Positions 1,280 to 64,000 of a stretch of 64,000 bases of DNA are shown here, in pieces. The notes under the pieces are model-generated. The model did not search any database. It had not been told where the DNA came from and was given only the letters and a program-made list of their open reading frames with translations. Positions within the stretch are counted from its first letter, which is position 1. The number at the start of each line of letters is the position of its first letter. The stretch is from contig OY253672.1 of NCBI GenBank assembly GCA_958009085.1, positions 1,488,001 to 1,552,000 of the forward strand, read 5' to 3'. Made by a program: the position numbers and the translations under genes. Source of the stretch: Protoeuglena noctilucae. Taxonomy: Eukaryota.

Positions 1280-4200
1280 CTATGCCTTGCCCCTGGGCTG
1301 ACGAGCACTCCCGCTTGCACCGCCGCCCGCCCCCGCGCCCCTCCGACCACTCATGTCGTCAACCCCCCCATCCCCGCTCCCCCGCATCATGTCCCTCGCG
1401 GCGTGCGCCAGTCTCTCCGCCTTGGCAGCCCTCACGTATTTGATGGCTGGGTTCATAGTCCATGATGGCTTGCGCAGTCGCAGCATCGACCCAAACACTA
1501 CCTGGTCTGCCGCGTCTGGGAACCCCGCCTGGTGCGCAAGGCTGCGAGTCACCAAAAGACACTCACTTGCAACAAGTCATGAAGGGTGCACAAAGTGACC
1601 CATGCAGCGACTACACATGCACGGACAGCCCACGACTCTCAGACTCGCAACACAAGGCTGCAGTGGCGATGCGATGCGCAGCACACACAACTCTGCCCAG
1701 CCCAGCGTCGCTCGCCTGACGAGTGCGTCCGCGTACGTCACCACATAATGCTCGAACATCATCTTGGGGAATGGGCGGAGCTTAGAGTAAAAGCTTCGAT
1801 CCACCTTCACCGCCTCCCACCGCCGCTTGTCCCGGCACCGCTCCACCCACCGCCAGTCGGCCTTCGCACGGCCCTCTGGTTTCGCGCCGCGCCCCTGAGG
1901 GCCCCGGCCCCGATCTCCCGGCCCGCGGCCACCCCCCGCCCCCGCCCCCGCCCCCGCACCCGCCGCTGCCGCAGCACCCCCATCGCCGCTCGCCGCCACG
2001 CCCCTCCTGCCGAACCCCAGCATCCACCGTCGCTTTGGCGGATCCTTCACTGTACTCGCTGCATCTTGCGACTGCTGCCCTGCCGCGTTAACACCCTTAG
2101 ATGCCTGGCGTGACGCCTCCCCACCCGCACTACCGCCACTAGCAGCCCCACCGGTCCCTCCCACCCCGCCCTCCTCTCTCCCCGTCTCTGCGTCCGTCCC
2201 ATCGAACCCCGCACTCATCCCTGCATCATTCAAATCCATCTCCAAACTGGATCGATCCCCTCCCAGGCTGCCCCCGCCACCCACCGCCCCTCCCATGCCG
2301 CTCAGCTGCAGCCCGGCCCACCCCTCAGGCGCCGCAGTAGACACAGAGTGCCTCGGCGAGCCACCCTCGTCCGAACCTTCCATTGGCGAGGCGTAGTCGG
2401 CGTGAGTGTCCGGATCGACGTGCATAGGGTGGATGCGCGACGCGGGGCGGCTCAAAGTGGGCTTTACGCGGCGGGCGAGGTAGCGGGAGGTGCGAGGGGC
2501 GAAGCGGGGGGGTCTGCCCTCCTTGGCGTCCTCGTAGTCCCTGCGATGAGGAGAAAGGGGGGCGTTAGTAGACAGTTATGAGCATAAGTGCGGTGGGTGT
2601 GTTGAAGCGCGAAGCATGCAGGGGTGGCAAGGCGCACGGACGAAGAAGAAAAGCGGCGTTTCGGGGCTCATGGCAGCATCTGACATAACCACAACCACAG
2701 CCTTCGCAGTCATCGCATCACCGCATTGGCACCGCATTGGCACCGCATTGGCACCTGTAAGAGTCGATGATGTGTCGGGGCACGAGGTGCCAGATGCAGC
2801 CGGCGGGGTAGTACTGGTACTTCCTGGCCAGATCGTGCTTTGACGCGTGAAGCGCATCGCCCTCTGCCCTGTGGCTGGTCCCGGGATGCGACTCCTCATC
2901 CGATGCACCCCTGGGGTGTGACCGGCTGCCGTGGGTATGGCCCATGGTACTCATGGATCGGTGGCGGTGGTGGTGGCGGTGGCGGTGCGGGGCGTGAGTG
3001 GGCGTGAAGGCGCCGACGGGGTCTGCGGGGGAGAGAGGGATGGCGGGGATGGGCGCGGGTGGCAGGGACGATGGAGCTGGGCAGAGAGCGTGAGGCGAAG
3101 GTGGAACGCAGTGGTACTCAAATGGGTACCCAGTAGTTGGCATGTAAGGCACCATTGTGCCCACTAGATAGCATGGCGTCACATCTGCCATAGCATGACG
3201 CACCCCTGAGGTCGTGGCCCGCGACGGAGAGCCTCCCGAGGCGCGGGGGAGCACGGGCTCTAAGGCCCGAGGGGCGCGCATGTGATGGTGACGGCAACGC
3301 CCCTTCTCTTGAAAGAGACGAGGCCCCTGGATCGCCTCTTGGCAATGATGCCGGCCCTGAGAGGGTGGCAAGGGCGGGGGAGCAGATCACTGCGCTGCTG
3401 CGGCACAGGCGTTGCCTAGCACAGTGCAGTGCAGTGTAGGGCATAGCTAGTCGCCGCAAATGCTCAGGCATTTGCACTGCAGGGCGGGACATGGTTTGGC
3501 CCATCACACCACGCGCGCTGCGTCACATCCCATCGCCATATCGCCACTTGCCTGCCTCGTCCTCCGCGACCCGGTCCCCCGTATCCTCCCTCACGACCCC
3601 ATTCGGCCCCGCTTGGTCACCCCACCCACTCCCTCTCTCGCGCCCTCCACCCTCGCCCTCCCTCTCCCTCTCCCTCTCCCTCTCCCTTTCACTCTCACTC
3701 CCACTCTCACTCTCACTATCGCTGGAAAACGACGACATGGATGACGAAGAAGAGGAGCTCGATCTGCCGAGGAACGCCCGCACCTCCTCGCCCCTCGCGA
3801 TCGCAGCGTCAGTGCCCGTTACTGCACCCGTACCGTAACCCCCCGTACCGTACCCCTCCTCTGCACACCCCTCCTCTGCACCCGTACCCTGCTCCCCCAC
3901 CCCAACGTCCGTCCCTGCCCCCACCTCTGCACCTGTTAAAGTCTCCTGACCCGGTGCATCGCCACCCCTGGTATCGTCAGCCACCCATCCCAGCCGCTCC
4001 CACCCCCCACTCCGCGCCTGCGCTTGCCCCGCGCCCATTGGCGAGCGCTCGCCCACCGCCGCCCCACCCTCGCCACGCCCGCGCCGCCTGCCGCCCTGCG
4101 CGATCGAGATAAGAGAAGAAACGCGTTTGATCGCTATGGAACAACGCCATGTCAACCACTGCATCGTTCACAAGAAGCGGCTTTAGAAGAAGCCCCTCAT

Positions 4201-7200: not shown

Positions 7201-8539
7201 TCCTCGTGGAGGCTCGCGAGGTCCCTGCGAGATGAAAGTCGGATGTCGAGGGCTCAGAATTGTTACATGGACATGCCCGCGAGCGTCTCACAAGAGCCAA
7301 AGGGTGCACGCATGCAGCTGCAGTGGCAGACACGGTCGGGCACACATGTACAGCAGCCAAGGCCACGCACACAGCTGCGGCAGGCAGGGCAGCCAAGGCC
7401 AGGCACACAGAGCTGCAAGCACTCGCCGTAGCATGGAGGTCAGCACCACGGCGGTGCCCGCCCCGAGGGAGTGTCCCACCACACGCAGGGCATACCCGGT
7501 CTCTGTTATTTCCTTGCGCAGCGTCTCCCTGAGTGCCTTTTTCAGGTGCCGGGCGGCCGTGTGGATGCCGTGGTGCACGTAGCCAAACACCGCGTTGCGG
7601 TCCCTGGGGTCGCCCCTGGGAGGCGAGGGCAAAGCATGGGATGAGGGCGGGGAGAGGGGTCACACGGGGGCAGCACATGGATGGCTAAGGGAAGGGAGAT
7701 GGGTTGCCAGGGCAGCGGGTGCGATGATCAGGGGACAAGAGAGGGATGGCGAGTGCAGAGTGAGACCCTCAGCAGGGAGCCATGCTCAGGTTGGCGAGAC
7801 GTGGGCCACACACCTGAGGATCCGTGCCCTGGTGGTCTCCCCCGTCATGCAAGTGAGGGCGTCCTTCATGCTGTAGGTGCCGCGGATGCACACGAGGATG
7901 AGGCGCGTGGAGTGGTCGCGCAGGACGTACAAGACGGGGCGCATAAGGCGCGGGACGGGGCTCTGAACTACCACGTCTTCCGCCGCGATGCCCATGCGTG
8001 CAAAGCTGCGCAGGGTGTCGGCCGCGCGACGCTCGCGCACCGCAATCATCAGGCTCACGAAGCGCAGCAGCAGGGGGATCTGCGGGGGCGGCGCTGGTGT
8101 CGGTCGCCGCGCGCAAGGCCGCATTGCCGAGTTTGCCGAGGTGAGGGGCGAGGGTAGGGCTGCCCGAGTCGCACCAGCTAATCGAGGCGGCCAGATATCC
8201 GCACGCACACCACACCTGCTCTCGAACTTCCTCCGCAGGGATGGGCGTCCCCACTCCGTCGAGGTCCACGGCCGGGTGGCGGTCCCCGTCGCGACGCATC
8301 AGGTATCGCAACCCAACAAGCAAATCCGCGATGCGCCACTGTCCGAAAACGTTCAGGTAGCCCCATTTGAGTGCCTGAAATGCCACGATGAAAGCGCTCC
8401 ACACGCTGTCCGGCGTATCGTTTGAGAACGCAACCCTGCGGCGAGGTGCGCACGCGCCGTGAGGGCGGCCCCGAGTTTCCCTTGTAACGCGGAGGCCTGC
8501 AGCCTCACGTCGTCGGGTTCCAGCCGCTCTCGACACCAT
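1280..8539 (-). CDS. Multi-exon class-3 lipase (DAG-lipase-like alpha/beta hydrolase) with a very long low-complexity insertion; start codon uncertain
   Basis: Exons give VLRDHSTRLILVCIRGT, GYVHHGI, VVGHSLGAGTA (GxSxG), CVAFACPAC..TTVVQGSDIIP, YYPAGCIWHL and MMFEHYVVTYADAL. A GC-AG intron at 1542-1715 joins in phase to a final exon ending at 1280. Confidence 0.8.
3655..3716. repeat. (CTCTCC/CTCTCA)n hexamer microsatellite within the lipase gene
   Basis: Visible tandem ctctcc/ctctca units, read as ER/ES repeats on the minus strand. Confidence 0.8.
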
Positions 8540-10314: not shown

Positions 10315-12269
10315 TCACTTCTTCTTCTCTGCGGACGCCACCGCGCCCAGCAGCTCCTTGAAGATCAGGGTCCCAACTGCCAGGAAGGAAAGCAGCACGG
10401 CGGCTGAGAAAGCGCCCTCCGTGTTGTACTCCTGAAAAGACGGGCAGGGGCGGTTGTCTTGAGCGCACAGAGCCCGGGGGGTGAGATGGAGGCCGCGACA
10501 GTTGGCCCAGGAGCCGTGGGGTGGCTGCCGGGATGATAAATGGTCCGATCGGCCGGATTCATCTAGCACCCATTTTGACCGAAGGCCCTGTGGGTGCCAG
10601 TGCCCCCGGCTTCGAAAGGTGCGGCGCGTAGTCCGTGACATGGCTGCCAGGCGCTCGCCTCACCCCCCTTGTATGCCCTAGGATTTTAATGACATCCAGA
10701 GTCGTCATTGTTTGGGTTAGCGCTCACCTTGTACGCGGACTCGACGTACAGGGTCAGCGTCTGCGTGCGCCCGATGATGTTGCCCGAGATGACCGACACG
10801 GCCCCGAACTCGCCCATGGCGCGGGCGTTGGTGAGGATCACGCCATACAGCAGGCCCCAGCGGATGTTGGGGAGAGTCACGTTCCAGAACACCTGCGCAA
10901 CCACGGGCCGGACGCCGGCCGGTGAGGTGCCCGGTCAAGGGTCAGTTGTCGCACGCGGCCCGAGCGATCAAAGGTTTTGTGCGCTGCGCAAGGCTCGCCT
11001 GCCACTCGTTCGCGCCCAGCGTTCGCGCGGCCTCCTCCTCCGCCTCGTCCAAAGCCTCGAGGATGGGGATGAGCTCCCTGGCGACGTAGGGCAGCGTGAC
11101 GAAGATGGTGGCCAGGGCCATCCCGGGGAACGCAAAGACGACGTTGATGTCCAGCTTCTGAAGCGACGGCGACACAGGGGCAGTCGTTGGACACAGATTG
11201 CCAGTGGGGGGGCGGCCACGGCAGCGATGCTCTCGCAACGTGTGCATGCGCCCCTCGCGGCAGTTGCATGCGCCCCTCACCTCCAGGACTGGCGCGAACC
11301 ACCCGCCCCTGCCGTATAGGAGCACGAGCATGAGGCCGGTGACGACGGGGGAGATGGAGAAGGGGAGGTCGAGGAGAGTGATGAAGAGGCTCTTGCCGGG
11401 GAACTCGTTGCGCGCTACCACAAGCGCTGTGCAGATGCCGAAGACCGTGTTGATCGGCACAGCGACGGCCGCTGCGGGCGAGCGAAGGGCGGCGTCGCAA
11501 TCGCGAGGCTGGGTGGAGGGCGGCGGGGGGCTCTCCTCCCTCTTTGGAACCCAAACCGACGAAGCAGAGAGGCAACTGGCATGCTATCATGCCCTCACCG
11601 AGCGACAGGGTCATCTTGACCGCGTGTTGGAAGTCCTCGTCCGCAAAGGACTCGAGGAAGGGTCCGGGTCCGTTCGCGAAGGCCTGGCAGAACACGTTGA
11701 TGGTGGGGATGATGAGGATGACAAACACGTACGAGAGACCGACCCCGATGAGCAGCTTGTCCGCCAGCGTCTCAGGCTTTTGACCTGCGCGCGGCAGTGG
11801 GAGCGGCGCTCAGCGGCCGTTGCAGCAAACGGCGGCGCCGGGGAGGGGGAGGCGGATGTACGGGCCCATAAAGTTACCACGCGCCACGCGGTGCCGGGAG
11901 AGCAGAAGGATCAGATGCCCTCCCGGGGCGCGCGGCCGTAGGAAGGGCGCCGCGGAGCTTTCTCGCAGAGCTGTCCAAAAGACCGCCAGCCATGGACAAA
12001 GGCTGGCGTTCCCCTTGGCCCTGCTGGATCATCCGATAAGGGCGGCGCAGCTGCCGGCGCTTACCTGAGGAACTCTCGCCTCCCAAGCCCCCGCCGCCCC
12101 CGCCGCCCCTCGCAATCAGTCTCAATTTCCTCCGCCAGGAACTCTGGCCCCGAACCGGCGAGCCCAGAGGGGCCCACGGTCCCCCGTCCAGGCCGCCCCG
12201 CAGCGCAGCCCGCGCCGAGCCGGGAGCAGGTAACGGCCGGCTCTGACGCAGCGCAAGCATGCTCCTCAT
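10315..12269 (-). CDS. cysW: Plastid sulfate ABC transporter permease, CysW-type (SULP2-like), with transit-peptide-like first exon; start approximate
   Basis: [41 protein letters not shown] loop [79 protein letters not shown]; stop at 10315-10317. Confidence 0.9.
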
Positions 12270-12724: not shown

Positions 12725-13496
<772 letters not shown>

Positions 13497-14055: not shown

Positions 14056-16553
14056 ATGACGGGGGCGCCTCAGGACCCCTGGAACCTGGAAGGGAAACAA
14101 ATCGAGTTTCAGGACGAGGAGGGGAACGATGTCGAGGGAAAGGTGCCCGCGTGGGCCCGCCAGGATGTGCGGAGATGCGCAAAGAAGCGACGGACCTGGG
14201 TCTCTCCTGTCCGCGGCGATGGGCCAGGGCGGGCCAGTGCTCCAACCTCGAGCACGGGCCGAATGTGGTGATTGACTTAGTTGCCGCCCCCTGTTCCCAT
14301 CTCCGTGCGCAGGTAATCAGTTGGCACAAGCAGCGGAACACGTACACGATCAAATGCCGCGACGGGAGGGAGCTGGAGGAGGTCATCGTGGCAGCGGTGG
14401 ACGAGAGGGTGCCGGCGGCCGCCAAGCCGCGCGTGGATAAGTGGTACTTCATGAAGTTAGACGAGGAGCCGTCGAGCACGCCCAGGTGGGGCCGCAGCGA
14501 GGCTTGCGCGCTGCCCTGGACGCCCCAGCGTGCCCCGCGCTGGGCTCGACGCAGAGCCCCTCTGCGCGGCCGCCCGCAGCGGCGACATGTGCGGCAAGTG
14601 CGCTGCGTGCAAGAAGGGCAAGGACTCGAAGCAGCAGTGTTTGATGAGCTCCGTGCGGTGGCTGGCGGACCGCAAGGTCTACTCGGCGCTGGTCGCGGAG
14701 ATGGGGGCTAACGCGATCGGTGCGCGCGTGCAGGTCCTGTGGCAGCAGGGCCCGCAGCAGGTAAGCGATGCAGGCGCTTGCGGTGGGCCTCGCGCTTTTC
14801 TGTCGCTCCGGACCTGCGCGGTTTCGGGCGCAGCGCAGTGGACATAGCACGCCCTCCTAGCACCCTGGAGCGAGGTCGCTGCGGCCTCGCTTCCGCGCAG
14901 TGGTTCGTGGGTACGGTCTCTGACTACGACGAAGTCAACGTCAAGCACCAGATCATCTACGACGATGGGGATGTCTCGAACGCCATGCTCACCAACCTCA
15001 TGATCCGGCCCATCGACCCAGAAGACCTCAAGCCCCTCGAGGCTGACTGGATGGCCCGAGACGTGAGCAAGCGCGCGCGTTTGCATTTCCGCATGGGCAG
15101 GATGACAGGCACTGATCGCCCCCTGTGGCACCCTAGCAAGCTCGTGCCTGGCCCTTTGACGTGCGCCCTTTCGCCCTGCTGCAGGAGCTGCGCGTGGTCG
15201 ACATCGAGGGCGAATGCTGCTTTGGGTCCCGTGTGCTCGGGGAGGCGGCTTGCGGGGAGCAGGTCCTCATCTTTGCCGGCGACCGCATTCAGGAAGGGAC
15301 CCTGGAGCGTTGGATCCCCGAGAAGCGCACGCACGTGGCCATGATCAAGTCGAAGGCGAGGACGTGGCCGTCGATGCGCTGCTGGTCATGGCTGGACACG
15401 GGTAGGTGTGCGCGTGCATGTGGGGCCAACCGCCCTGGTTTCGTCGGCCTGCGCAGGAGGTGCCTTTGAATTACCAGCGGCACGTGGTGTTGCGGCGCCC
15501 CAAGACCCCGGACTTCCCAATCTTGAAGCACATGCTGGCCGTGAACGACACGCGCAGTAGGTCATTCGCGACGAACCAAGCGCCGGTGGAGGGATCGAGG
15601 TGAGAGGATGGACATGAGCACGTCTGGGCGAGTTTTATCGCAGACGCGACGCGGGGTGCTTCACTGAGCGCGCAGCCGTCTGGTGCTGGTCTCGTGTCAG
15701 GCGGCTGATGTTGCATAACTGCCCGTGCTGCACAGGGGCAAGCGGCCGGCCAGCGTGGACCTGCGGGGGCTGGAGGAGGAGCTGGGGCAGGAGGTGAGCA
15801 GATGACCGTGCTCGACTCGCTGCCGGCGCCCCCTAGCCTCGGAGCACGTTCCCACTGCTGCTGCCCTTGTTGCTGTTGCTGCGGTGATACGCACTGTGGT
15901 GATACGCACTCGAGTCCGCGCTCCTGCATCTACGACCGCGCCCCTGATGCGCCCCCGCGCGCGCAGAGGCTTCCGGAGCACACGCGCAAGCAGCTCAAGT
16001 TGATCCAGGCATTGCGCGACCTCCCGGACGATGCCGACGGCAGGCAATACACCAAGGTGTCGTCGCTCTTCGAGCAGTTCTGCATGACGCACCCCTGCGT
16101 GCCCAAGGACACCCAGGCGCTGTGGAAGCTGTACGTGGCGGGGCGGGACTACTCCCACGAGGCACTCGAGTCGCAGTCCATCGGGCCTGCCGTCTATTTC
16201 TTCAACCCACTGGTGCACATGGTGCGTCGGGAGCCCGGTAGAGCCCCTGGGCGGCTCTGCAATGCGCCGGGCCCACGGCTGCGCTGTTGGCGGATGCAAG
16301 GGCCGACGGTCGCGCCTGTGGGGACCGTTTCACCAATACATGCGTATCGTGCGGTGTTTTGCTTCCGCAGATGGGGTTGTCATATGAGGACCTGGGGGAC
16401 ATCAAAAAGGTGCAGAAGGTGATGGACAAGGCCAACGGCAAGATACGGGTCTTCTGGCTCGCCACCCAGGGCATCTTCAACAGCCTCATGCGGCGGGAGC
16501 AGATGACCATGCCCAGGGAGCCAATCGCCGAGCAGCGATTTAACGGCGCCTGA
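14056..16553 (+). CDS. Uncharacterised multi-exon protein with Tudor/SH3-like barrel(s) and a Cys-rich segment
   Basis: GC3-rich exons bounded by splice sites: LEGKQIEF..|VISWHKQRNTYTI, CGKCAACKKGKDSKQQC, AIGARVQVLW..|WFVGTVSDYDEVNVKHQIIYDDGD (Tudor-like), ending IAEQRFNGA*. Some internal junctions are uncertain. Confidence 0.55.
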
Positions 16554-52441: not shown

Positions 52442-53806
52442 TCACCCGCCTTGACCAAGCCCCGACATGGAAGCCGCCAGCCCGGCCACGACCGCCTCTT
52501 TGACAAAGTCGTGCGGCATGCCGTACACGGCCCTCGCCCCCGGCTGCACCAAGCAAGCGCCGTCCGCGTTGACTCTCAGCTCGAATGCCTCAGCCACGAA
52601 CCCCGCGCCCACGCTGCCCCGCTCGCTGGCTGCCGCGACCCCCGCGTCCCCCGCGTCCCCGTCTTTGGGCGTCGGCACCGGCACCCCCTCCAACTCCTCC
52701 CACGTGAACAGCAGCGGGTTGGTGGTGCACCTCCACGGGTTGACGTCCAGTACCCGCGCACCCCGTGCGGCCGACCCGGTCAGGTGCACGTCGTATGTGC
52801 AGTCGGCCAGCGGCAGCCGCCCCGCCACGTGCGTTGTGTGGAAGGTGCGAAGGGCGCCAGCCACCTCCTCCCGCGACGACTCCAGCTGAGGCATGGCGCT
52901 GTGCGCGTGGCGCTGGCTCGCGCCCACCAGTGCGCCCCCGCGCACGAAGCACCGAAACTCCGCATCGGGTCGCATCTCCACCCACCGCTTCAGGACGAGC
53001 GTCGGGGCGAAGGGCGGCAGCAGAGGGGACCCCGCGTCCGCAGCGGCCTCCGCCCGGCTTGCGCGGGCGCGCTGCACGGCGGGGCCTGCCTCCGAGAGGT
53101 CGTGCGCGATGCGGTCGGAGCTCTTCAGCAGCAGCGCCACCTCCTCCGCATTGGTGCACTCCATCGTGCCCGTCGCGTTCATCCACGTCGCGTCCACCGG
53201 CGCGCTCCAGTTCGTCTTGGGCATCACGCACCCTCCCAGCTCCTGCAGTGACCCGACCATCGCGCACGGTCGCCCCACGTACGGCGGTGCAGGCATCGCC
53301 GCGCGCCTGGCCTCGAGCACTCGCCTCTATTGCTCTCTGGATTTGGTCCCGCAATTGGGGGAACTTGGCGAACCAGTCGCCGTCCCTGTCCTCTGAGCCC
53401 CACCCGGAGTCACTCCCGCTGTCCCCCGCGCCTGGTTGCGAGCTCGCAGCGCTGGACGTCTGCGGTCCCCAGCCGACAGGGAGGGTGAGAGTCAGCACAT
53501 GAGCCTCGCCATACCGGCTCAGCTCTAAGCATTTATACAGTGCCCCACCTGCTCTACCTCGGCGGGCCACTGGCGCTGGTAGCCATCCTCGTCCGAATCG
53601 TGGGCGTGGGCTCGTGCGGCTGGTATAGCTTGGTTGTTTTCCCCGAGAAAGACCCCGTCAGCTAGCAGAAAGGCCACGAACTCGGCGGGAAGGGGGATGC
53701 ACACAGCCGGAACACACACAGACCTCCCGAGGGCCGCGCTCCAGACGGCGAACTGGCACTTGGAGAGGTCGGCAGCCCCTTCATCCATCACTGAAGACGC
53801 GGCCAT
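52442..53806 (-). CDS. CDC123: Cell division cycle protein 123 (D123 family, eIF2 assembly factor)
   Basis: CQFAVW..IPLPAEFVAFLLADGVFL, FPQL..IE|ELGGCVMPKTNWSAPVDATW..LLLKSSDRIAHDL, LVLKRW..EFRCFVRG..LVGASQR, DVNPW..TNPLLFTWEEL. Confidence 0.92.
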
Positions 53807-54209
53807 GTGTCGACGCTCGCGCACTCCCCAGGCCTATTTGCTAGGGCAGCCGTCTCACGGTACGTCTCACAGGCGCCGGGACGAGCAGGGCTGTGGTCTT
53901 GCGTAAGCACATGCACACTCGGGGACCACGGGGAGGCGTTTGTTTCATCACGGGAGCTGCAACCACCAGCGACTGGCGAGAATGTGTTGCCAGTGGCCCA
54001 CGTTCGTGCCGATTTTGCAATGCACACGCTCTTGGGACATGTCATGAACAACTGAATGGTAGCTGCGCATTGTGGCGCGGCCCTGGGCCCCACCCGACGC
54101 TGGCTCAGGGTCTCGCTCTAGACGTCACCCCTCCCCCGATCGCGAGCGAGGTGGCGCAAGGTTTCGACCTAACCCCTGTGTCGCTTATTGACGAGGCTGT
54201 AAGCTAGGC

Positions 54210-55317
54210 ATGGCGGTACCGATGTTCACGCGTGGAGGAGTCGCGGGGGTGGTGGATTTCGTTCCAACGCGGTGCACCTGCCTAGGAACAGCGGGGACAC
54301 TCGCGAAAACATGCCCCGCCGCGAGGACTTTGGCTCGATCAGTAGCGTTGTCGCCGAGCTTCCGGGCCCGGACGCGACTCTCGCGCTTCCAGCAGGCGCA
54401 ATGTCGAGACACGAGCATGCGCTTATCCGCGCGACGGGATGGCTCAGGGGAGGAGGCGAGGAGACTTCCGGATGATGTGGAGCGAACCGGCGCTGAGGGT
54501 GCCCCAAAGCTGCATCGGCTCCGCCTCATCGTGATGCGGCACGCCGAGTCGGTGGAGACGCCCACGATTCGGGACTACGACAAGCCTTTACTCGAGTCCG
54601 GACGGGCGCATGCCTCCAGCGTCGCTGCGCAGCTCGACAAGCTCGGCTGGCACCCGCAACTCGTCCTCTCCTCCGATGCCAAGGCGAGGCGTGTGCAGGG
54701 CTGTGCTGTCCGGCAGCGGCGGCTGCGCTTCAACCTTCGTCTAAACCTCCGTCTTTTCCATCGCCCCCAGCGCTCGAGGGAGACGATCGAGGCGATGCTC
54801 GGTGCCTGCGACTCCCTGCGCCATGCCGCCATCAAGTACTACGGGAGCCTCTACACGATGGCCGCGCTCGACGGGGAATGCCTGGGCCACCTCAAGACAC
54901 TGGTGCGGAGAGCGCTATGACCCCAGAGTGGATGTCATTACAGACTAGACGTGTGTCGGTTGGTCGCCCACTGGGAAGCGTTCTCTGCCAACGCAGTTGC
55001 TGGAGGAGGCGACGGATGCGATGAACACCGTCCTCTGCGTGGGCCACAACAAAGGGTGGGAGGAGGCCGCCAGCACGCTCTCGGGGCAGCCGGTCCGCCT
55101 CAAGAACGCGTGCGCTGCGCTGCTGGAGGTGAGTCGCTCGTGGATGGGCAGTGCGTCAAAGTGCACTGGGCGGGCAGCGAATGCGGATTCAAATCCAACT
55201 ATGGCTCCGTCACCGCCCCCGCAGACGAGAGCCACGTCTTGGGCGGACGCGCTGGGAGGGGACGAGCAGAGGACGTGGGCGCTCGTCAACGTCGTGGGTG
55301 GTGCATCTTCTGCCTGA
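54210..55317 (+). CDS. SixA-like histidine phosphatase superfamily protein with plastid-transit-like N-terminus
   Basis: LIVMRHAES..DYDKPLLESG..GWHPQLVLSSDAK|RSRET..SLYTMAALDG..VLCVGHNKGWEEAASTLSG. Confidence 0.83.
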
Positions 55318-55817
55318 GCCACTTTTGGTACTCCACTCTTTCCCACTTCACCGGACACACGCGTTTTTGTGCGGGAGCCGCCGTCTCGAGCGCCCTTCCT
55401 CGCGGCTCCGGGAGCTCCAGTTTTTGAATCCGCCAGTAGCTGTCAGAGCCAGCCTGCCGCCCGCCGGGCCCTGCTCCCTCGGAAACGCGAAGCACGTCCC
55501 ATTTTAAAGCGACGGGAGGCACGGAGTCAGACGGGGCTGAGATGTCGGCCGTCTAAAGCGCCCACCTGGGCTTGTTTGCGTGCACGAGCAGCGCGTCATG
55601 GCGGGGGTCGCGCAGTACGGGCCGGCGGCTCCGCCGGTCATCAGGTACTCCCCTTACTAGGAATTCACATTCTGCATCGCGTCGCATGGAACCCGGCGCC
55701 TGCCGAGACGTTGTTGAATGTGCCGACCCATTGCGCGTTTTTGCTCGCCCCACCTGCTCTGCACCGGCCCGTTCGGTGCCTTCTGCGTACAGGTATTTCC
55801 AAGCCCCCGGGGACACG

Positions 55818-58800
55818 ATGTCTCTTGCGGATTGGGAGCGCGTCGACGCCGTGGACCTCCGGAGCCTCTTCGGACGCGGGGGCGTCAGCGAGCGCGACCT
55901 GGTGCCGGTAGAGGAGGCCGTTTCGACGATATGCGATCGTGTCATCTACACGGAGGTCCCCGAGGGCACCCCGGCGAACCTCGAGCGCAGCATTCGCCGG
56001 CTCGAGAAGGCGCTTGCGGTGTTGTCCGTCGGGGTCGACCTGCAGAGCCAGCGCTACGACGAGCGGGTCAGGGAAGCGGAGGCGCAGGACCAGGAGAACG
56101 AGGAACTGCGCACGGAGGTCACCCGGTTGCGGCAGCAGGTGAGTTGGACGCCGCAGCAGTTGCCCCTCCGAACCGCCTGCACACGCGCCAGGGAGCGCCG
56201 AGCTGCTCTCGCCCACCCCCGCTGCAGGTCGACGACGGCTTTGAGCGTCGCGTGAATGCCCGGCTCGCGGCCGGGGCGCAGGGTTTGGACACCATGGAGC
56301 TGATGCGCGAGGTGGGGCAGCACGCACGCACTCTCAGCACTGCACCCTGCGGTGCCTCTGCTCTTCGCAGGGTCCGCATTCGACGCCACTGTCTCGTCGC
56401 GCGCTGTTCGCAGAATGAGAATCTCTCGCAAGCCCTCACGGACGCCGACCGTAACCGCGACATCTTGCAAGAGCGCATCGTGCTACTGGAGGACCAACTG
56501 AGGGACAAGACGGCCGAGTGCCAGGTGTGACCCAGGAAGCAATTGCGATTCCGTCTGGCTCATTACAGGCCGTGGGGCTGGCAGGCGCCCCGTCCACCAC
56601 CCCCAGGGTTGGGGTTGTTACCCAACCATGTTGTCGTGTTACTATGGCCCCCATCCCGCCTTTGCTCTGCAGATGATCAGGGATCGGGCGGACTTGCTCC
56701 AGAGGCAGGCGGCGGAGAAGGACGGGGAGCTGCGGGACCTGCGCCTGGAGGTGGACGAGCAGGAGCGGAGGATGCGGGGCGGTCGGGGCAGGACGGGGAC
56801 CAAGGGAGAGCTTGACATCCTGCGTGCCCAGGTGACGCTGCCGTGCTGCAGACATGCCGAGTGCCACGTGCGGGGTTCCACATCTGCCTTAACCAGTTTC
56901 GGACCACACCCACCACCGCCAGGCACGGCCCCATGTCCCCATTCTATGCCACGCTGCCATGCTATGGGGGGCGACGTGCATCAATGCTACCTGACGCACA
57001 GGTCCGCAAGCTGCTTCTGGACAACCACGACTTGGACAAGGTGAATAAGGAACTGAAGACTGCCGAGGTGCGGCTGAAGGGAGAGCTGGACGAGGCGTCG
57101 CGTGCGGTGGTGCAGCTGTCCGAGGGCGAGCGGGAGTGGCAGGCACGCGAGTCGGAGCTCCTTTCTCGTCTCGACGAGGTGAGGGGGTTGGATTGACTGG
57201 CTGGATCGAGTCCACAGTGTTGTTTGGGACCCAACAAGCACAGTTGCGACGTGCGGTGGCGACAGTCGCGACCACGGTCGACCACTGTGTTGCGACTGCC
57301 GGGTAGCAAACACCCTGGCAGAGACACCAGATTGGTGATCCCCGGTCCCTCTCTCGGCCCCACCCCGCAGCTCCAGCAGAAGGTCCAGATGGCCGAGTCG
57401 GACAATCGCGACATGAAGCTGACGGTGGCGGGGTACTTGAAACAGTTCGAGGCCATGGAGGTCACGTTCGAGCGGAATTACCGCATGTGGGAGGCGGAGA
57501 AGCACGCGTTGGAGCAGCAAGTGCAGGCTTTGCAGAACAAGACGAGGCAGCGGGCCACGCGGGACGCCCTGCAGCGGCGCGGCGTGAGCGTCGCGGATGA
57601 CGACGGGGATGAGTCCTTCGACGAGGGGGCCAGCGAGGCGTCGGGTGAGGCAGGGAGACGCAGAATGCGAAATGGCACCTACCGAGCTGTGTTAGTACCT
57701 GGTGCGAGATGGCACTGTTGCCGCATGACGCGAGCTGTCACTGCCTGCGGGAGGGTGCAGGCACGCGCTGGCGGGAGCGAGGGCGCTGGGGCGCCCTCGC
57801 ATGTCGCAAGCTCGTGCTTGCACTGCCGCTGACTGCACCGGTGTGCATATCACATACTCCGCACCACCGGTGCCCATACAACACCCTGCGCCCGCAGTGC
57901 CCGACACCTTGGAGCGCCTCAAAGCGGAGTTGCGCAAGTTCCAGGAGCGTGAGGTGCTGCTGATGGAGGCGTATGAGGAGTTGGAGCGCAACGTGGCCAA
58001 GGAGGTGGACGCGGCGCTGGCCGAGGAGCGCAGGCGCACGGGGGAGGACCAGCTGCGGGCCAAGGTGGCAAGGCGAGTGGGTGTGGGTGTTGTGAGTGTG
58101 TCTGTGTGTGTGTCTGTGCGTGTGTCTGTGTGTGTGTGGTGGGGTGGATGCAGGACCAGCTGCGGGCCAAGGTGGCAAGGCGAGTGGATGTGGGGGGTGG
58201 GGGTGGGGTGGGGTGGGGGGATGGGAGTATAGAAAACCAGCTGCGGGCCAAGGTGGCAAGGCGAGTGGGTGGGGTGGCAGGCAACGAGGGTGGCTTGCCA
58301 GTGCAAGCGGTGGCTGCAAGTGGTGGTTGTGAGCTGGGTAGGGGGAGTGTAGGTTGAGGCGGCTTGCCAGGCGACTTGTCATGAGCGCGTCGAGAACGGT
58401 AAACCAACCCCTCCCCAACCCGCGCCCGCCCTTGCAGGGAGGAGGTGGAGAAGGAGCGCCGCAAGAACCGCGAGCTGGCGGCGGAGGTGTCGAGGGTAGA
58501 GGAGCGGATCAAATATTTAGAAGAGCGCACCAAGGCGTACGAGCGTGGATATGGCATCGAAGACGCGGCCGCTGAGATCGAGAAGTGGCGGCAGGACGCC
58601 GTCGACCGAGACAAGGCATTGGGAGAGGTGACGGAGAGCGGGGGGGGGGTGGACTGGGCGTGAACTGGGCTCGCATGGTGCGACATCTAACCATGTCGAT
58701 GTCACGTGCTCACGGCATGTCATGGATGTGGCTGGGCTCACACTCACATGGTGCTACACCTCGGCACGACGGGGTTGCATGCGCATGCGTGTGCAGTGAT

Positions 58801-61800
58801 GCGCACGGCATGTCCGGGGCGTGGCTTGGCTTGCTGTGCAGGTGCTGGACCGGGCGAATCAGTACTCGGACGCGATCGACGCGCTGTCTGCGGAAAACGA
58901 GGCTCTGCGGAAGAAGGCTGGAGTGCCTGCGGACGCGAGAGTGGACGTGGCGGGCGTGAAGGGGCGTGCGAGGGAGGAGGTCCGGCAGCTGCGGGCGCTG
59001 GTGACGCATCTGGAGACGGAATTGCAGGAGAAGGAAGACGTGGAGATGCGGCTCAGGTGGGGCTGGGGGTGGGGAGTCGATGGCAGGGCGGGGGGGCTAC
59101 ATCAGAGACAGCGTGCGTTTGCTCAGGCCTTGCTCATGCTACCGATTGATTCACCTGAGATACATGTTAGGTGTGTTGCTGATTGATGATAACATACACT
59201 GCCCCTGCTCCCCCGCAGGCACGAGCTGAGGTATCGTGTCAAATGGGGTGGTCGCGAGGCCATGCGCCTGGGGCTGACGGAGATGCAGGTGGTCTACCTG
59301 GAAGAGATCATCGATCAGCTCAAGGGAGACGGGTTCGGCACGACCCCAGGCGAGTGGGCGGCACCTGGGAGGGGCCTGCTGCGTTGCGTGCAATGATGGC
59401 GACATGTGACGGGCACTGCGCTGCTGCCGCACTGCACCGCTGCCGGCGCCGAGGCCAGGCGCAGCTGCGACCCGTCCCGTGTGCCCTCATCTCCCCCGCA
59501 GAGCAGCGCACGATGCAGAAGATGGAGGGCAAGATACGGGACCTGGAGAAGGCGTGTCGGCGTCTGAAACAGATGCTGGCGATGCCAGAGGAGGAGGTGC
59601 ACCTGCTACTGAGGGCCGTGACGTCTCCCGAGTCGGAGATCATCGCTCCGATGGGCCCGGGGGGTGGCGCGGGGGTGCCTGGGGGCCTGGCCACGGCAGA
59701 GCAGCTGCGGGCCTTAGAGCAAGCGCTGTTGCGGGCGAGGGGCGAGCTGCTGGGACAGGGGCAGCAGCACGGGGAGGCCCTGGGGCACCTGGAGAGCGCG
59801 CTGGTGAGCGGGGTAGCCGACGGGCATGCGACTATGCTGCTGCATTGGGGCCCAGGTGGCAAGAGTGGGCAAGTATGTAGGGCAGGGTGCTGTGCTCGAC
59901 CCAGCGTGACGCACCAGCTGTGGCCGCGTTGTTAGATGACCGCCGCGTGCGTGTTGTGTCGCAGGGTGCGGTGTCGGCAGCGCTCGCCGGCCGCCACCCA
60001 CCAACGGAGGGGACGCCCCACGTCACACGCCTATCGTCGCAGCGACATGGGCCCCTGGCGGCAGCTGCGGCAGCTGCGGCGGGGGGAGTTGGCATCGGCG
60101 CGAGTCCCGCCCAGGCAGCTGCCATCTTCGGCAGCCCCGTGGCGCCTGCCGGCATTGTGCCGGCCATCGCGGGACCGGGGACGGGCGCCGTGGCTTTGCG
60201 GGAGATGTTCCGGGAGAAAGCCGAGGAGCTGGCGCGTCTGCAGGCGGAGCTCGCGGAGCGCACCGCGGTTATGCGCGCGATGCAGGGCGAGCGGGACGCC
60301 CTCCGCGCTCGCCTGCGCGGGGAGTTCCGGGGCGGAGAGGGCGCGGGGTTCGTGTCCATCCAGGTGTGCGGGGATGCGAAGCAACACTCGCGTTGCGACA
60401 CTCATGATTCCATTGGCAATGAGATACTCACAACTCCACGTGATGGTCTGCTATCAATGCGTCAATGCACATGGCGGCTTGCTGACCACCCCTGCCACGC
60501 CGCAACTTCGCAGGAGCTGCGGGAGGTGGAGGCGGAGGCGCAGAGCCTCAAGGCCCAGCTGGTGGAGGCTCTGGAGGAGTCGCAGGTCCGGGAGAGGGAG
60601 TTCGCGGCCGCGGAGGAGGAGCTGGAGCGGACGCACGGGGCCCTGCAGGGGATGCTGGACCAGCGAGCGCTCTTGTACCGGGAGTACGCTCGGCTGCGGG
60701 AGCAGCGGGACGCGGAGGCAGCCCGGATGCAGGAGCAGCTGCGCAAGGCAGGGGACGCGCAGGCGGAGCTCAAGGCCGAGAACCAGCAGCTGCAGCGGAC
60801 GCTGGCGGCGCTGCGTCCGGTGAACCCCGACGCGCCGACGGGGGCGGACGTGGCGCGGCTGGCCGAGGAGCTCCACGCCCGCACGCGCGCCCTGGTCAAG
60901 GCCGAGGTGGCCGTCGTGCGGCTGGGCCGGCAGCTGGGCCTCGCGGAGACGGCGGAGGTGTCCCTGAAGCGACGCATGCGCGAGTGCGAGGTGCGGGGAG
61001 CGACCTGTGCTGGGGTGCACGTGCTGGTTGCCGGCTTGCGGGGTGCACCGAATGCGCTCGGGGAACGCCTTTAGCTCAGTTCTGCCACAGGGATCGCATC
61101 GTCACCTGCTGTCCCCTTCGCTGTGGCGACACTGCACTGCCGCGCCCCTCATCCATGCACATTGTCATGCTACGCAACACACCGCGGTGCCCCATGTCGA
61201 CCGCAGGACGAGCTCCGCGAGATGTCCAGCGTCCTCCGCGCCCGCTTGGACCAAGTCACACGGTCGCGGGACGAGTTCTTCCGACGGCTCTGCCACAGCC
61301 AGTCGCAGCTGGACGCCTCCGTGCCTCGCGCCACCTTCACAACAGTGCAGGAGAGGCTGGGGCAGGCCGAGCGGCGGCTGAGGGCTCTCCTGGAGGAGCG
61401 CGCGGATGATCGGACGTCGGAGGGAGAGGCGAGGAGGCTGCTGTACACGGGGGTTTGTGCTGCATGCGCGGTGCTGCTGTTGGGTACAATGTGTGCCCAT
61501 TGTCGTTGCTTTGTGGATGGGGTAACTGCACAGCTGTGCAGCGACTGCTTGGTAGTTAGCAGATGCCTGACTCGCGCCGACCGGGCAGCGGGGCGGCCAG
61601 GGCGAGAGCGGCGTGTGGTCCGACCGCCAACATCTCTCTTTGCGTGTTGACGTGCGCAGGTGGCGCGGCTGCGTGAGGAGTTGGACGCCGCGGACCGTCG
61701 GTGGGCGGAGGCCGCGTCGCGCGCCTCTCGCCTGGAAGAGGTGGCCCGGCAGATGAAGAGCGGGGACGGGGCGACAGCTGCCGTGAATGAGGAATTGGTG

Positions 61801-64000
61801 CGGGCGAGGGTGGAGCTCGAGGCCGCGGGGGCGCGGGTGGACCGGGCCAAGAGGGAGGCGGAGAGCGCGCGCAGGCGAGTGCTTAGTGTTGCTGGGCACG
61901 TGCGCAGGGGCACTCATTCGCTCAGCTCAGCCACCCATGGGCTCAACTTGGGTCACGCTGTGGTGGGATCCTGCGATGGTTGCACTGTAGCTCATGCACA
62001 TCTCGTTCGTCCCTCGCAGGGCGAAGGAGGAGATCGAGTCCAAGATGCGTGCCGTGGAGTCGGACCTGGCTGCCAAGGCGGCGGCGCTTCACGTGGAGCA
62101 GGAGCGGGCGGTGGAGATGGCGCGGAGGCACGAGGCCATGGTCCCAAAGGAGGACGCCGCCAGGGTGGAGGCGAGGGGGGTGGTCGCTGATGTTGTCTGT
62201 TGTTGCACTGATCGCAATCACCGCTTCCTTGGTCTCTATCAACAAACGCACCTTGCTCCCCGTCACCTCTCCGCATCGGTGCCGGTCGCCGCCCACCATG
62301 CATCGACTGCAGTCACGAGTGCTTCTCTCTGTCGCGTGACTGGCCCCGTGCCTCCTTCGCCGCAGGAGCGCGCCCGTTCTGCCGAAGAGGAACTGCGCCG
62401 CGTGGAGGAGCGACTGGTGGTGGTGCAGCGGCAGGCGGACGACGCCCACGCGGCCGCGTCTCAGGCCGAGGTGCAGTCCACCGCCGCCACCGCCGAGCTC
62501 CACCAGCTGCGGGCGGCGGTGCGGGAGATGGCGCAGCGGTCGGACGCATCGATGGCCGTCGCCAGATACACGGAGGAGGTGGTGGGGCTGCGGCAGGAAC
62601 AGGCGCTGCTTCGGTCGCAGCTGACGCGCAGCGAGAGGGACCGGGAGCGCCTCGTCCACGCCAACCTGTCCCTGGAAAGGAGCATCGCGCAGGTGAGGGT
62701 TGAGGAGAGGGTGCTTGGCAGTCGAGGTGTCGACGGCAACCCACAGGGTGTCAACTGCTGACCTATGTCGCTGTCTAAGCGGGGTGTCTAAGCGGAGTAC
62801 TGTCAGTACCTTAGCGGGAGTTGTGACTGTACCCAGAAGGTGAGCCCTGTCGTCACATCATCACTCTCCTTGCCCCGCAGCACATGCACGAGACGGACGC
62901 GCTGCGTGCCAAGCTGGTGGAGACCAAGCAGCGTGCCGTGGGGGCGGAGGCGCGGCTGGCGTCGCTGCGGGCTTCGTCGGTTGAGCCGCACCGCGCGGAG
63001 CGGTGGGCGAGGGCGGCGGCAGACGCGCGCAGGCGGTGCAAGTGGATGGGCGAGGCCATGGACGCTCTGCGCGAGCAGGCGAGGGCGGGGAGCACGATGT
63101 GACATGCGGGATTTGCCTCACGCAGCATCTGCCTTATCCCAAGCAATGCTCACCTTAAGCGCGCTCACACGCTGCAAGCGAACGTGATCCCAAGCAACGC
63201 TCACCTCGCTGCAACCAAGGCTGTCCTGCGTGCTAATCCCGGCCTTACCTCTCCCGCCTGTTCGATCGCAGGTCGTGACGTGGGCGATGCGCGTGGTGGG
63301 CAAGGAAGAGGCGGCGGATGCGGTGCTGTACGCCAAGTCGTTGCAAACAGTGACGGAATCCGAGGCCAAAAAGGAGGCGGTGCGGCTGCGGGAGCAGCTT
63401 GGCCGAGAGAAACTCACCCGGACCAAGGCGGAGAGGCGAGGGGGGTAGGGGAGTGGCACAGCACGTTGCCACAGGGAGGGGCGTAGCACGATGCCGGGAT
63501 GTTTCACAGTGCATGTTGTTGCATAGGCTATAACTTGCTTAGCGCATGCCCTATGCGCGTGCGGCGTCCCTCCTCCGCACACGCTGACACCAGAGCACGT
63601 TCCTGCAGGGAGCGCATGGTGCTGAATCAGAAGGCCGACTTCTTGTCGCACGTGAACGGGGAGCTGGAGGAGCGCATCGAGGAGTTGGAGAAGGGCGCGT
63701 TGGAGGAGTCGGAGTCGCTGGAGAGGGCCCGGGAGGAGGCGCAGGGGCGAGCGGACCGCGCCGACGCCGAGGCCGAGGCACTGAGCCAGGAGGTGGGTGG
63801 GGACATGGGTGGGGACAGGAGCGGCAGCGGGAGCAAGGGATATGTTATATGTTCTATGTGTTTCTTATAAATATTGCATTTTGTCGGATTTGGGTTTTCG
63901 ACAGAAAGTCCCTCCAAGCCACGTGTTGTCTGCAGCAGTCACACGATTCGTGCTGACACCCGCGTGTGTGTGTGTTACCCTTGCAGGTGGTGAAGCTAAA
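55818..64000 (+). CDS. CEP290: Centrosomal/transition-zone protein CEP290, 5' part (continues past the window end)
   Basis: More than 20 coiled-coil exons. Segment AYERGYGIEDAAAEI..RDKALGE|VLDRAN..LSAENEALRKKAGVP..VD..LRALVTHLETELQEKED and ALLYREY resemble the conserved CEP290 core (recognised from memory, not searched). Confidence 0.75.
58045..58271 (+). repeat. Three copies of a ~33-36 nt exon end plus GC donor in CEP290
   Basis: accagctgcgggccaaggtggcaaggcgagtgg at 58048, 58155 and 58236, separated by TG- and G-rich spacers. Confidence 0.95.

Follow-up and report, generated by a model that had tools for sequence, protein, structure and literature searches.

Frequent GC-AG introns with otherwise matching donor sites in a 64-kb genomic stretch of the green alga Protoeuglena noctilucae

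Introduction

The 64,000-nucleotide stretch of Protoeuglena noctilucae DNA analysed here (the window) raises the question of whether a large share of its introns begin with GC and, if so, whether an ordinary spliceosome can account for them. An earlier note on this sequence had listed 26 GC donors and had proposed a relaxed or re-specified recognition of the 5' splice site in a green alga, possibly driven by GC-biased substitution. High shares of GC-AG introns are already known in other algae; this is a further case, in a green alga, and no long-standing question is opened by it. The placement of the host in the green lineage was upheld: in a tree of the RNA polymerase III largest subunit (RPC1) the window sequence and two relatives were sister to Chlorophyceae (support 90/81), apart from streptophytes, and the best named matches of this protein were chlorophyceans, with 54% identity.

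Results

Donor motif at the listed sites

Inspection of the 64-kb window showed the pattern (A)G|GC(G/A)AG at 26/26 listed donors. The description given in the earlier note (G always at −1, AG nearly always at −2/−1, mostly GCGAG with some GCAAG and GCGCGG) proved accurate: G precedes GC at all 26 coordinates, AG occupies −2/−1 in 24, the exceptions being 7426(-) with CG and 38893(-) with GG, and the donor letters are GCGAG in 24, GCAAG in one (12872) and GCGCGG in one (49235). Independent evidence was obtained for 11/26 donors, four by RNA contigs and seven by protein continuity, frame and coding-potential models being the sole support of the other 15, and none was refuted (0/26). All 26 claimed donors and all 11 confirmed introns start with GC and end with AG. 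The weakest of the listed donors were 58073 and 47204.

The heptamer AGGCGAG occurs 44 times, a three-fold excess over the 14.7 ± 3.7 occurrences in 100 shuffles, none of which reached 44. Validated or modelled donors account for 23 of these occurrences, whereas one lies in exons in sense and six in exons in antisense orientation. Inside genes the motif is biased toward the sense strand (28 sense vs 9 antisense, p = 0.003).

Introns confirmed by RNA

The RNA contigs came from four metatranscriptome runs (three samples, one study). Spliced RNA had been named in the earlier note as a check of its claims, and exons were found joined at GC borders at four sites, two of them (49235-49332 and 54684-54770) being listed joints, while 48548-48653 and 53324->53243 were derived from piece ends and record arithmetic:

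48548..48653, plus strand: GC-AG intron of the CCDC146-like gene; donor GCGAGG; RNA pieces end at 48545 and restart at 48652, in exact arithmetic agreement with the 958 nt of X1 record 2
49235..49332, plus strand: GC-AG intron of the CCDC146-like gene; donor GCGCGG; joint 49232/49331 in 4/4 runs, GC..AG once two ambiguous letters are shifted
53243..53324, minus strand: GC-AG intron of the D123 gene; donor GCGAGT; X1 record 3 adds up arithmetically only with an exon 53459..53325 followed by one from 53242
54684..54770, plus strand: GC-AG intron of the histidine-phosphatase-like gene; donor GCGAGG; joint 54681/54769 in 4/4 runs

Introns confirmed by protein continuity

Removal at exact borders was thus established from RNA, by contig joints or arithmetic, for four introns, and was deduced from gapless protein continuity for seven more:

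12872..12965, plus strand: GC-AG intron of the ubiquitin-S27a gene; donor GCAAGA; ubiquitin Pfam profile 1-47 in the upstream exon, 48-72 in the downstream exon
13140..13228, plus strand: GC-AG intron of the ubiquitin-S27a gene; donor GCGAGT; S27a part gapless, Ribosomal_S27 profile 8-33 from residue 2 of the next exon
10893..10998, minus strand: GC-AG intron of the nuclear CysW-type sulfate permease gene; donor GCGAGC; equivalog profile TIGR02140 split 172|173
28536..28730, plus strand: GC-AG intron of the RPC1 gene; donor GCGAGC; tblastn and spliced alignment
37394..37710, minus strand: GC-AG intron of the TTC30/IFT70 gene; donor GCGAGG; P0148 and P0149 spliced alignments gapless across the joint
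38704..38893, minus strand: GC-AG intron of the TTC30/IFT70 gene; donor GCGAGT; P0148 and P0149 spliced alignments
39120..39341, minus strand: GC-AG intron of the TTC30/IFT70 gene; donor GCGAGT; donor and acceptor picked with both homologs (P0148, P0149)

The joined ubiquitin-S27a protein is a 152-aa fusion without interruption. In the permease, the TIGR02140 match 121-172 ends at the final residue of one exon and 173-227 begins at the initial residue of the next. With RPC1, the tblastn match of P0089 broke off at 28535 (q2-138) and was taken up again from 28728 (q138-194), and the donor 28536 was chosen in the spliced alignment with four homologs. GT-only alternatives were implausible at three of these introns: at 28536 the alternative costs 7-47 units (45-47 for 3/4 homologs) and requires a micro-exon of 3-18 nt, and in TTC30/IFT70 micro-exons of 9 nt and 5 nt would be required at 37710(-) and 38893(-), respectively. 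It can therefore be stated that the introns at these 11 sites, RNA-confirmed ones included, exist and are spliced at the borders given.

Modelled introns

The remaining 15 sites are candidates of graded strength:

39488..39676, minus strand: probable GC-AG intron of the TTC30/IFT70 gene; donor GCGAGT; gene-finder only
47853..47966, plus strand: probable GC-AG intron of the CCDC146-like gene; donor GCGAGC, from frame and coding score
47204..47350, plus strand: possible GC-AG intron of the CCDC146-like gene; gene-finder only, weak, after a 42-base first exon
7225..7426, minus strand: probable GC-AG intron of the class-3 lipase gene; donor GCGAGT; Lipase_3 profile 31-84 before, 94-136 after
20759..20861, minus strand: probable GC-AG intron of the mRNA capping enzyme gene; donor GCGAGG; profile order across three exons
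42350..42489, plus strand: probable GC-AG intron of the dual-specificity phosphatase/gelsolin-like gene; donor GCGAGT; gene-finder only
15356..15456, plus strand: modelled GC-AG intron of an unnamed gene; donor GCGAGG; gene-finder only, downstream exon score 3.5
1542..1715, minus strand: modelled GC-AG intron of a weakly supported gene; donor GCGAGC; gene-finder only, gene score 18
58073..58437, plus strand: uncertain GC-AG intron of the long coiled-coil gene; donor GCGAGT; motif present, bordering a GT-rich tandem repeat
59350..59501, plus strand: modelled GC-AG intron of the coiled-coil gene; donor GCGAGT; gene-finder only, read-through stop after 15 codons
61429..61659, plus strand: modelled GC-AG intron of the coiled-coil gene; donor GCGAGG; gene-finder only
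61875..62019, plus strand: modelled GC-AG intron of the coiled-coil gene; donor GCGAGT; gene-finder only
62171..62365, plus strand: modelled GC-AG intron of the coiled-coil gene; donor GCGAGG; gene-finder only
63079..63271, plus strand: modelled GC-AG intron of the coiled-coil gene; donor GCGAGG; gene-finder only, read-through stop after 7 codons
63436..63608, plus strand: modelled GC-AG intron of the coiled-coil gene; donor GCGAGG; gene-finder only, read-through stop after 4 codons

At 39676(-) the homology is weak, and the GT four bases downstream, with another acceptor, would also be compatible. For 47853..47966, an RNA piece starts at 47965, its two ambiguous letters AG agree with AG as the end of the exon upstream, and read-through meets a stop after 28 codons. 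The exon score at 47204..47350 is low (7.5) and the intron lacks a stop. With the GC prior set to 1%, the gene-finder no longer called the lipase donor 7426(-). The capping enzyme profile runs over three exons as 13-62, 72-99 (E = 0.05) and 113-194, and read-through at 20861(-) stops after 4 codons; the acceptor of this intron is uncertain, being 20786 in one model and 20759 in another. The exons flanking 42350..42489 score 50.7 and 41.1, with a stop within the intron. At 58073 the gene model took 58068 plus a micro-exon instead, while a direct 58073->58437 intron would preserve the frame.

Frequency of GC-AG introns

Among the 46 introns of the window with RNA or homology support, 11 were GC-AG (24%, Wilson 14-38%), 35 GT-AG and none of another type, in a set that is skewed toward genes with claimed sites, TTC30 having been picked for its four claims and two of the four RNA-supported GC introns having been derived because they were claimed. 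The listing of RNA joints was made without regard to the GC-donor question; among the 15 listed of 38 joints, 14 were plausible and two of these were GC-AG (14%, Wilson 4-40%). A gene-finder with a prior of only 1% for GC donors still placed them in 29/130 introns. It must be noted that this gene-finder is crude and follows a logic like that of the earlier note, that the sets behind its self-trained donor matrix contained GC donors, and that it misses 6-7 of the 46 validated donors and makes clear errors at 51640 and in the micro-exons 37459 and 58154. When restricted to GT, the model lost 217-335 nats and recovered 30/46 validated donors, none of them GC. These estimates cover one 64-kb window, in which roughly every fifth intron is GC-AG; the claim that GC donors stand well above 1-2% is supported. 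GT-only gene prediction would break many genes of this organism.

Consensus strength and base composition

In ordinary GC-AG introns the other donor positions are closer to the consensus than in GT introns, and the confirmed donors of the window follow this U1-complementary AG|GCRAG consensus more strictly than its GT introns do. Among the 11, −1G and +5G are present in 11/11, +3R in 11/11, and −2A and +4A in 10/11 each. The remaining core (−2A, −1G, +3R, +4A, +5G) is perfect in 9/11 GC vs 7/35 GT donors (Fisher p = 0.0004), and −2A is found in 23/25 GGCGAG donors vs 13/34 GGTGAG donors (p = 3e-5). The compensation pattern, with GC only where the donor otherwise matches, holds. At perfect-core donors the GC:GT ratio is 8:7 in the validated set and 23:13 with modelled donors added, the latter count being partly circular since the model favours such motifs. 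Neither ratio departs from the C/(C+T) of the introns, which is 0.60 (binomial p = 0.73 for 23:13 and 0.61 for 8:7), and GC-biased composition, which had been suggested as the driver, is sufficient in this respect.

The donor motif of U12-type (minor) introns is rigid, /(A|G)TATCCTT, and is accompanied by a corresponding branch-point box. This class was rejected, as 0/46 validated donors carried ATCC at +3..+6 and all read G(T/C)(G/A)...

Discussion

We consider that these are probably ordinary GC-AG introns of the major (U2-type) spliceosome in a GC-rich, intron-rich marine green alga. The usual donor in the window is (A)G|GTGAG, turned into (A)G|GCGAG by a single T-to-C change at +2, and this C would be tolerated only where all other U1-pairing positions match (−2A, −1G, +3G/A, +4A, +5G). 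At such perfect sites the T/C choice at +2 roughly follows the composition of the surrounding intron, as if the position were nearly neutral, while at imperfect sites C is almost absent. Recognition may then be carried out by a conventional U1 tolerating one mismatch, with GC-biased substitution setting the frequency of GC donors. As a counterpoint to a driver based on GC content, the annotations of Gonium, Volvox and Chlorella variabilis hold less than 1% of major non-canonical sites, although such annotations may disallow GC donors. This compensation rule gives a simple and testable account, in which GC is confined to donors that match at every other position, with a frequency at these sites close to that expected from intron composition, and it makes a special spliceosome unnecessary.

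A stronger form of the argument, that +2 is effectively neutral at otherwise matching donors and that the GC-AG share is the highest recorded in Viridiplantae (about 20% genome-wide), is put forward only tentatively, and we lean against it. If true, the genome would be a natural titration of the U1 pairing required by a 5' splice site, and standard GT-only annotation would mis-model a large part of its genes.

The re-specified machinery proposed in the earlier note would consist of a changed reader of the 5' splice site, either a U1 variant able to base-pair with a +2 C or an altered U6, U1-C or Prp8, for which GC would be a second standard donor. A GC-donor share of about 20%, well above the 5.6-8.5% in other green-algal annotations, would agree with such a change, as would the annotation of some comparably GC-rich green algae at under 1% and the finding that GC equals or outnumbers GT at perfect-core sites. 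We nevertheless regard it as unlikely and not indicated by the data, because the excess of perfect cores among GC donors fits a mismatch to a conventional U1, a requirement that a compensating U1 would not impose; GT donors, moreover, are still the majority, with a relaxed consensus. An Rfam search of the 64-kb window revealed no snRNA genes, U1 included.

It is very improbable that the GC donors were brought in by a transposon-derived intron family (introner elements). RPC1 has ten introns here at places that are intronless in other organisms, and putative introners with GT and GC donors are described for P. calceolata in bioRxiv 10.1101/2021.10.25.465678. Introners form families of introns with shared sequence, often with terminal repeats. 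Against them, when 129 modelled introns were compared with one another by blastn, the only matches were 23 short ones of low complexity and no family emerged, median lengths in the modelled set are alike (GC 142.5 vs GT 153), and housekeeping genes, ubiquitin-S27a for example, carry GC introns at conserved positions. Introners are already largely refuted in the window.

Least credible of all is an artefact of wrong exon borders or T-to-C errors in the assembly consensus: 15/26 sites lack independent evidence, nine GCGAGT donors have an alternative GT four bases further on and the window contains a 200-N gap, but RNA joints settle four sites and protein continuity seven, GT-only models require implausible micro-exons of 3-18 nt, RNA contigs differ from the window by a single base in 20 kb, and 100% of sampled 31-mers of 47001-57000 were present in four runs of one sample, which is perhaps the source sample and so not independent.

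With respect to known systems, the statement that high GC-donor rates are known mainly in haptophytes and dinoflagellates omits the pelagophytes (14-17%) and some green-algal annotations (5.6-8.5%). In the haptophyte Emiliania huxleyi, PMC4028052 gives 135/241 curated junctions (56%) as GC, confirmed by cDNA, in a genome of 65% GC to which the shift is credited; a share of about 55% is also cited in the PhycoCosm article (PMC7779022). This haptophyte and the present host are both GC-rich marine algae with canonical AG acceptors, but E. huxleyi belongs to another supergroup and has GC as its majority donor, against a minority of about 20% limited to perfect-consensus sites here. The share in our window is similar to that given for predicted introns of the pelagophytes Aureococcus anophagefferens and Pelagomonas calceolata (about 14-17% and about 14%), which bioRxiv 10.1101/2024.10.30.620910 credits to high GC. 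These stramenopiles have few introns (0.19-0.92 per gene in the same source), partly introner-derived, unlike the approximately six per modelled gene and the lack of an intron family found here. The association of GC-rich DNA with many GC-AG introns, known from haptophytes and from pelagophytes, is seen in the present window for a green alga as well.

Within Chlorophyta, the supplementary table MOESM6 of PMC6310983 counts major non-canonical combinations, AT-AC included, at 7090/124435 in Chlorella sorokiniana, 8057/114347 in Micractinium conductrix, 496/8831 in Micromonas pusilla and 173/2044 in Ostreococcus tauri, from which we calculated shares of 5.7, 7.0, 5.6 and 8.5%, respectively. GC content is high in the first three of these algae, and introns are numerous in the Chlorellaceae, as they are in the present host, whose share would be about 2.5-4 times higher than these table-based values if the window is representative. 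The ordinary U2-type GC-AG class of plants, animals and fungi has in common with the introns described here the GC donor, the AG acceptor and the stronger consensus elsewhere in the donor, whereas its frequency is roughly ten- to twenty-fold lower.

GC-AG introns in the window and in RNA

The frequent use of GC-AG introns, proposed in an earlier note that listed 26 GC donors, is confirmed. When the sequence was read directly, GC with a preceding G was present at all 26 coordinates; AG occupied −2/−1 in 24 of these donors, and the donor itself read GCGAG in 24, GCAAG in one and GCGCGG in one. Eleven were confirmed independently, none was refuted and 15 are modelled only. The G+C content was 58-68% across the window (4-kb bins). 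The heptamer AGGCGAG was found 44 times on the two strands of the window, vs. 14.7 ± 3.7 expected from 100 dinucleotide-preserving shuffles, none of which reached 44. Inside genes it was sense in 28 cases and antisense in 9 (p = 0.003), and the sense copies comprised 23 donors, one exonic site and four intronic sites.

RNA was taken from four marine metatranscriptome runs (three samples, one study), which contain 38-50% of the sampled words from 47001-57000 and were used as contigs over 44001-64000. Each cut was shifted by its ambiguous letters before its dinucleotides were read. Among the 15 joints listed, of 38, 14 were canonical introns, namely nine GT-AG on the forward strand, three GT-AG on the reverse strand and two GC-AG. 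The joint 58492/60571 is implausible as an intron, with only 20 letters on one side. Further introns were derived from piece ends and record arithmetic; for 48548-48653, the 958 letters between two placed pieces of the RNA contig record X1 record 2 equalled the summed length of the four intervening exons.

GC-AG introns supported by RNA, and GT-AG introns derived by record arithmetic
49235-49332, GC-AG intron, RNA joint, also claimed in the earlier note
54684-54770, GC-AG intron, RNA joint, also claimed in the earlier note
48548-48653, GC-AG intron, piece ends and record arithmetic
53324 to 53243, reverse strand, GC-AG intron, piece ends and record arithmetic
49916-50049, GT-AG intron, piece ends and record arithmetic
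53548 to 53460, reverse strand, GT-AG intron, piece ends and record arithmetic

The comparison with spliced RNA recommended in the earlier note thus gave four introns with GC-AG borders among 18 supported by RNA. Since two of these four were worked out because they had been claimed, the unbiased figure is 2/14 among the joints listed. RNA cover over 56-64 kb was thin, with 58492/60571 as the only listed joint there, and the seven GC donors of the coiled-coil gene in that region therefore remain modelled sites. The intron beside the claimed donor at 58073 is filled with GT-rich and G-rich tandem repeats (58077-58293), and 58075-58229 was skipped as a repeat in the RNA mapping. Contigs of three or four runs matched the window up to 47659 and 61010 and then continued in other sequence, which had no match anywhere in the window; they may be chimeras, or derive from a related organism or a paralogue, and these ends are uninformative about introns.

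Gene content and protein homology across GC donors

Most genes were named by Pfam and NCBIfam searches with in-frame exons, and three more by other searches.

Genes named in the window
GT4 glycosyltransferase, Pfam/NCBIfam
Class-3 lipase, Pfam/NCBIfam
NUDIX hydrolase, Pfam/NCBIfam
10315-11869, reverse strand, CysW-type sulfate permease, TIGR02140
Ubiquitin-S27a, Pfam/NCBIfam
mRNA capping enzyme, Pfam/NCBIfam
EBP-family protein, Pfam/NCBIfam
6-phosphogluconolactonase-like protein, Pfam/NCBIfam
RNA polymerase III largest subunit (RPC1), homology search
TTC30/IFT70, JGI name on match P0152
Dual-specificity phosphatase, plus a weak, sub-threshold gelsolin-repeat match
KAS III, Pfam/NCBIfam
CCDC146 homologue, homology search
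Vps55, Pfam/NCBIfam
D123, Pfam/NCBIfam
Histidine-phosphatase-like protein, Pfam/NCBIfam
Long coiled-coil protein, possibly CEP290-like; runs off the window end

The housekeeping gene for ubiquitin-S27a has GC donors in two of its three introns, because the ubiquitin profile is split between the exons before and after 12872 (positions 1-47 and 48-72) and removal of the introns at 12872, 13140 and 13316 yields an unbroken product of 152 residues. TIGR02140, the bacterial CysW equivalog, was matched over five successive exons (3-53, 58-118, 121-172, 173-227 and 228-256), with the GC intron at 10998 (reverse strand) placed exactly between positions 172 and 173. This nuclear, intron-containing gene matched the bacterial profile in all five match-bearing exons, over positions 3-256 of 261, and presumably encodes a subunit of a sulfate transporter in the plastid envelope.

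Homologues were also aligned to the genome with our own protein-to-genome spliced aligner, which admits GT or GC plus AG and uses no splice-site matrix. The GC at 28536 was chosen with all four RPC1 homologues; restriction to GT cost 7 to 47 units (45-47 for three of the four) and introduced a micro-exon of 3-18 bases. With two TTC30 homologues the GCs at 39341, 38893 and 37710 were chosen, and the GT-only run cost 41-48 units and created micro-exons of 5 and 9 bases. Conservation is weak around the remaining one of the four claimed TTC30 sites, 39676, and the aligner did not use it; a GT four bases downstream is a possible alternative donor. A representative search with the exon 60514-60990 gave six matches, none extending to a claimed GC donor, and a capping-enzyme exon used as query against PDB sequences had no relevant match.

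Rate of GC-AG introns

The validated set consisted of 46 introns, 18 supported by RNA and 28 by homology (ubiquitin-S27a 3, CysW 4, TTC30 7, RPC1 14), with 35 GT-AG, 11 GC-AG and no other borders. The GC-AG share was 24% (Wilson interval 14-38%), a figure biased upwards because TTC30 was selected for its four claimed donors; in RPC1 alone it was 1/14. The probability of at least 11 GC donors among 46 is 1e-9 at a rate of 2% and 0.001 at 8.5%.

With its GC prior set to 0.2, a Viterbi gene-finder of our own (3-periodic Markov coding model, self-trained on RNA-supported exons) modelled 36 GC donors among 129 introns in about 20 genes. Lowering the prior to 5 and 1% left 32 and 29 GC donors among 130 introns, and 24 and 22 sites, respectively, were recovered out of the 26 in the earlier note. 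The GT-only run lost 217-335 nats and recovered 30 of the 46 validated donors. As the program follows the same reasoning as the earlier note and makes visible errors, its result is counted as consistency, not proof. It also proposed a perfect AG|GCGAGT donor absent from the earlier list:

19552-19772, reverse strand, intron of the capping-enzyme gene, gene-finder

Eleven other unlisted GC donors from the gene-finder look unreliable, such as that at 51640, which is contradicted by RNA joints.

Comparison with other organisms

GT-AG accounts for 97.9-98.7% of introns in plants, animals and fungi (PMC7072748), GC-AG for 135 of 241 curated junctions (56%) in E. huxleyi, ascribed to its 65% G+C (PMC4028052), or about 55% in that species (PMC7779022), and GC-AG for about 14-17% and about 14% in pelagophytes (bioRxiv 10.1101/2024.10.30.620910). 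Among green algae, major non-canonical combinations number 7090/124435 in Chlorella sorokiniana, 8057/114347 in Micractinium conductrix, 496/8831 in Micromonas pusilla and 173/2044 in Ostreococcus tauri, and fall below 1% in Volvox, Gonium and Chlorella variabilis (supplementary table, PMC6310983). No paper on a green alga near 20% GC-AG was found in open-access and bioRxiv full texts. The introns described here are a further case of an already known phenomenon; they matter chiefly for gene annotation and because they illustrate compensation at donor sites cleanly.

Lineage and intron density

The best named matches of RPC1 were chlorophycean algae (54% identity); the protein atlas offered no taxonomic indication. 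A maximum-likelihood tree built from 33 sequences grouped the window's RPC1 with two unnamed relatives in one clade. The sister group of this clade was Chlorophyceae (support 90/81), and streptophytes, stramenopiles and fungi fell elsewhere; the tree included no named trebouxiophyte or mamiellophyte. On this gene, the assignment of the organism to the green algae as a whole is supported. The only run of Ns in the window (200 N, 32495-32694) lies inside the RPC1 gene. Residues ~631-921 of the homologue P0091 are unmatched in the window, and the gene is therefore incomplete across this gap in the assembly.

The first 566 residues of RPC1 (27777-32018) are interrupted by ten introns, while P0089, an unnamed relative 77% identical to it, is a continuous 542-residue product, and the metagenome contigs L001:10001-11596 and L054:4526-6103 (G+C 0.60) carry the same stretch with zero introns. 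The alga is far richer in introns than the closest sequences detected. A metagenome scan with P0089 gave 80 loci, most of which were archaeal-like (37-41% identity), and no close relative. Two candidate source organisms were rejected: Prasinoderma coloniale has a similar gene density but 2.2 annotated exons per gene (supplementary table 7, PMC7455551) vs. about 7 here, and Pycnococcus, judged on gene density alone, has 11,297 genes in 22.7 Mb, or about 2 kb per gene, vs. about 3.2 kb here.

Donor consensus and origin of the GC donors

Validated GT donors were mostly GTGAG, not GTAAG, with G at +3 in 33/35, and the usual donor is thus itself GC-shifted. Their exon side was only loosely constrained (−2 A in 19/35). 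The GC donors were stricter (−1 G 11/11, −2 A 10/11, +3 G or A 11/11, +4 A 10/11, +5 G 11/11), and the perfect core (−2A, −1G, +3R, +4A, +5G) was present in 9/11 of them vs. 7/35 GT donors (Fisher p = 0.0004; Mann-Whitney p = 0.0002). In the full annotation, −2 was A in 23/25 GGCGAG donors vs. 13/34 GGTGAG donors (p = 3e-5). A stronger consensus at the remaining positions is also typical of GC donors in other organisms.

It is probable, in our view, that these donors arose by GC-biased T-to-C drift at strong sites. The strict consensus is the mark of conventional U1-type reading, where a mismatch at +2 can be tolerated only when every other position pairs, and drift at strong donors would supply the GC forms. 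Among perfect-heptamer donors the GC:GT ratio was 23:13 in validated and modelled introns together, a count partly circular through the modelled donors, and 8:7 in the validated set alone; neither ratio can be told apart from intron composition, with C/(C+T) at 0.60 in the validated introns (p = 0.73 and 0.61). The earlier note had suggested that a variant U1, U6, U1-C or Prp8 reads GC as a donor. We consider this improbable and rank it below GC-biased drift, because the compensation seen here would be unnecessary for a U1 altered so as to pair with C at +2; Rfam detected no RNA genes (U1, U6 or others) within the 64-kb window. Of that interpretation, the green alga stands with the RPC1 tree and GC bias is plausible, but a special spliceosome is not indicated. 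An origin from introner elements, of which putative examples with GT and GC donors are described in Pelagomonas (bioRxiv 10.1101/2021.10.25.465678), is unlikely, the 129 modelled introns sharing just short low-complexity matches. Assembly error is likewise unlikely, given one base difference in 20 kb between window and RNA contigs and the presence of every sampled word from 47001-57000 (100%) in the four runs of one sample labelled organism A, though this is possibly the source sample.

At the other end of the intron, the acceptor consensus is C-rich, then GCAG. In several introns a very long uninterrupted stretch of C, at least 16 bases, leads up to the AG (36975-37199 on the reverse strand, 33354-33873 on the forward strand and 30401-30435), and in these the polypyrimidine tract is essentially poly-C.
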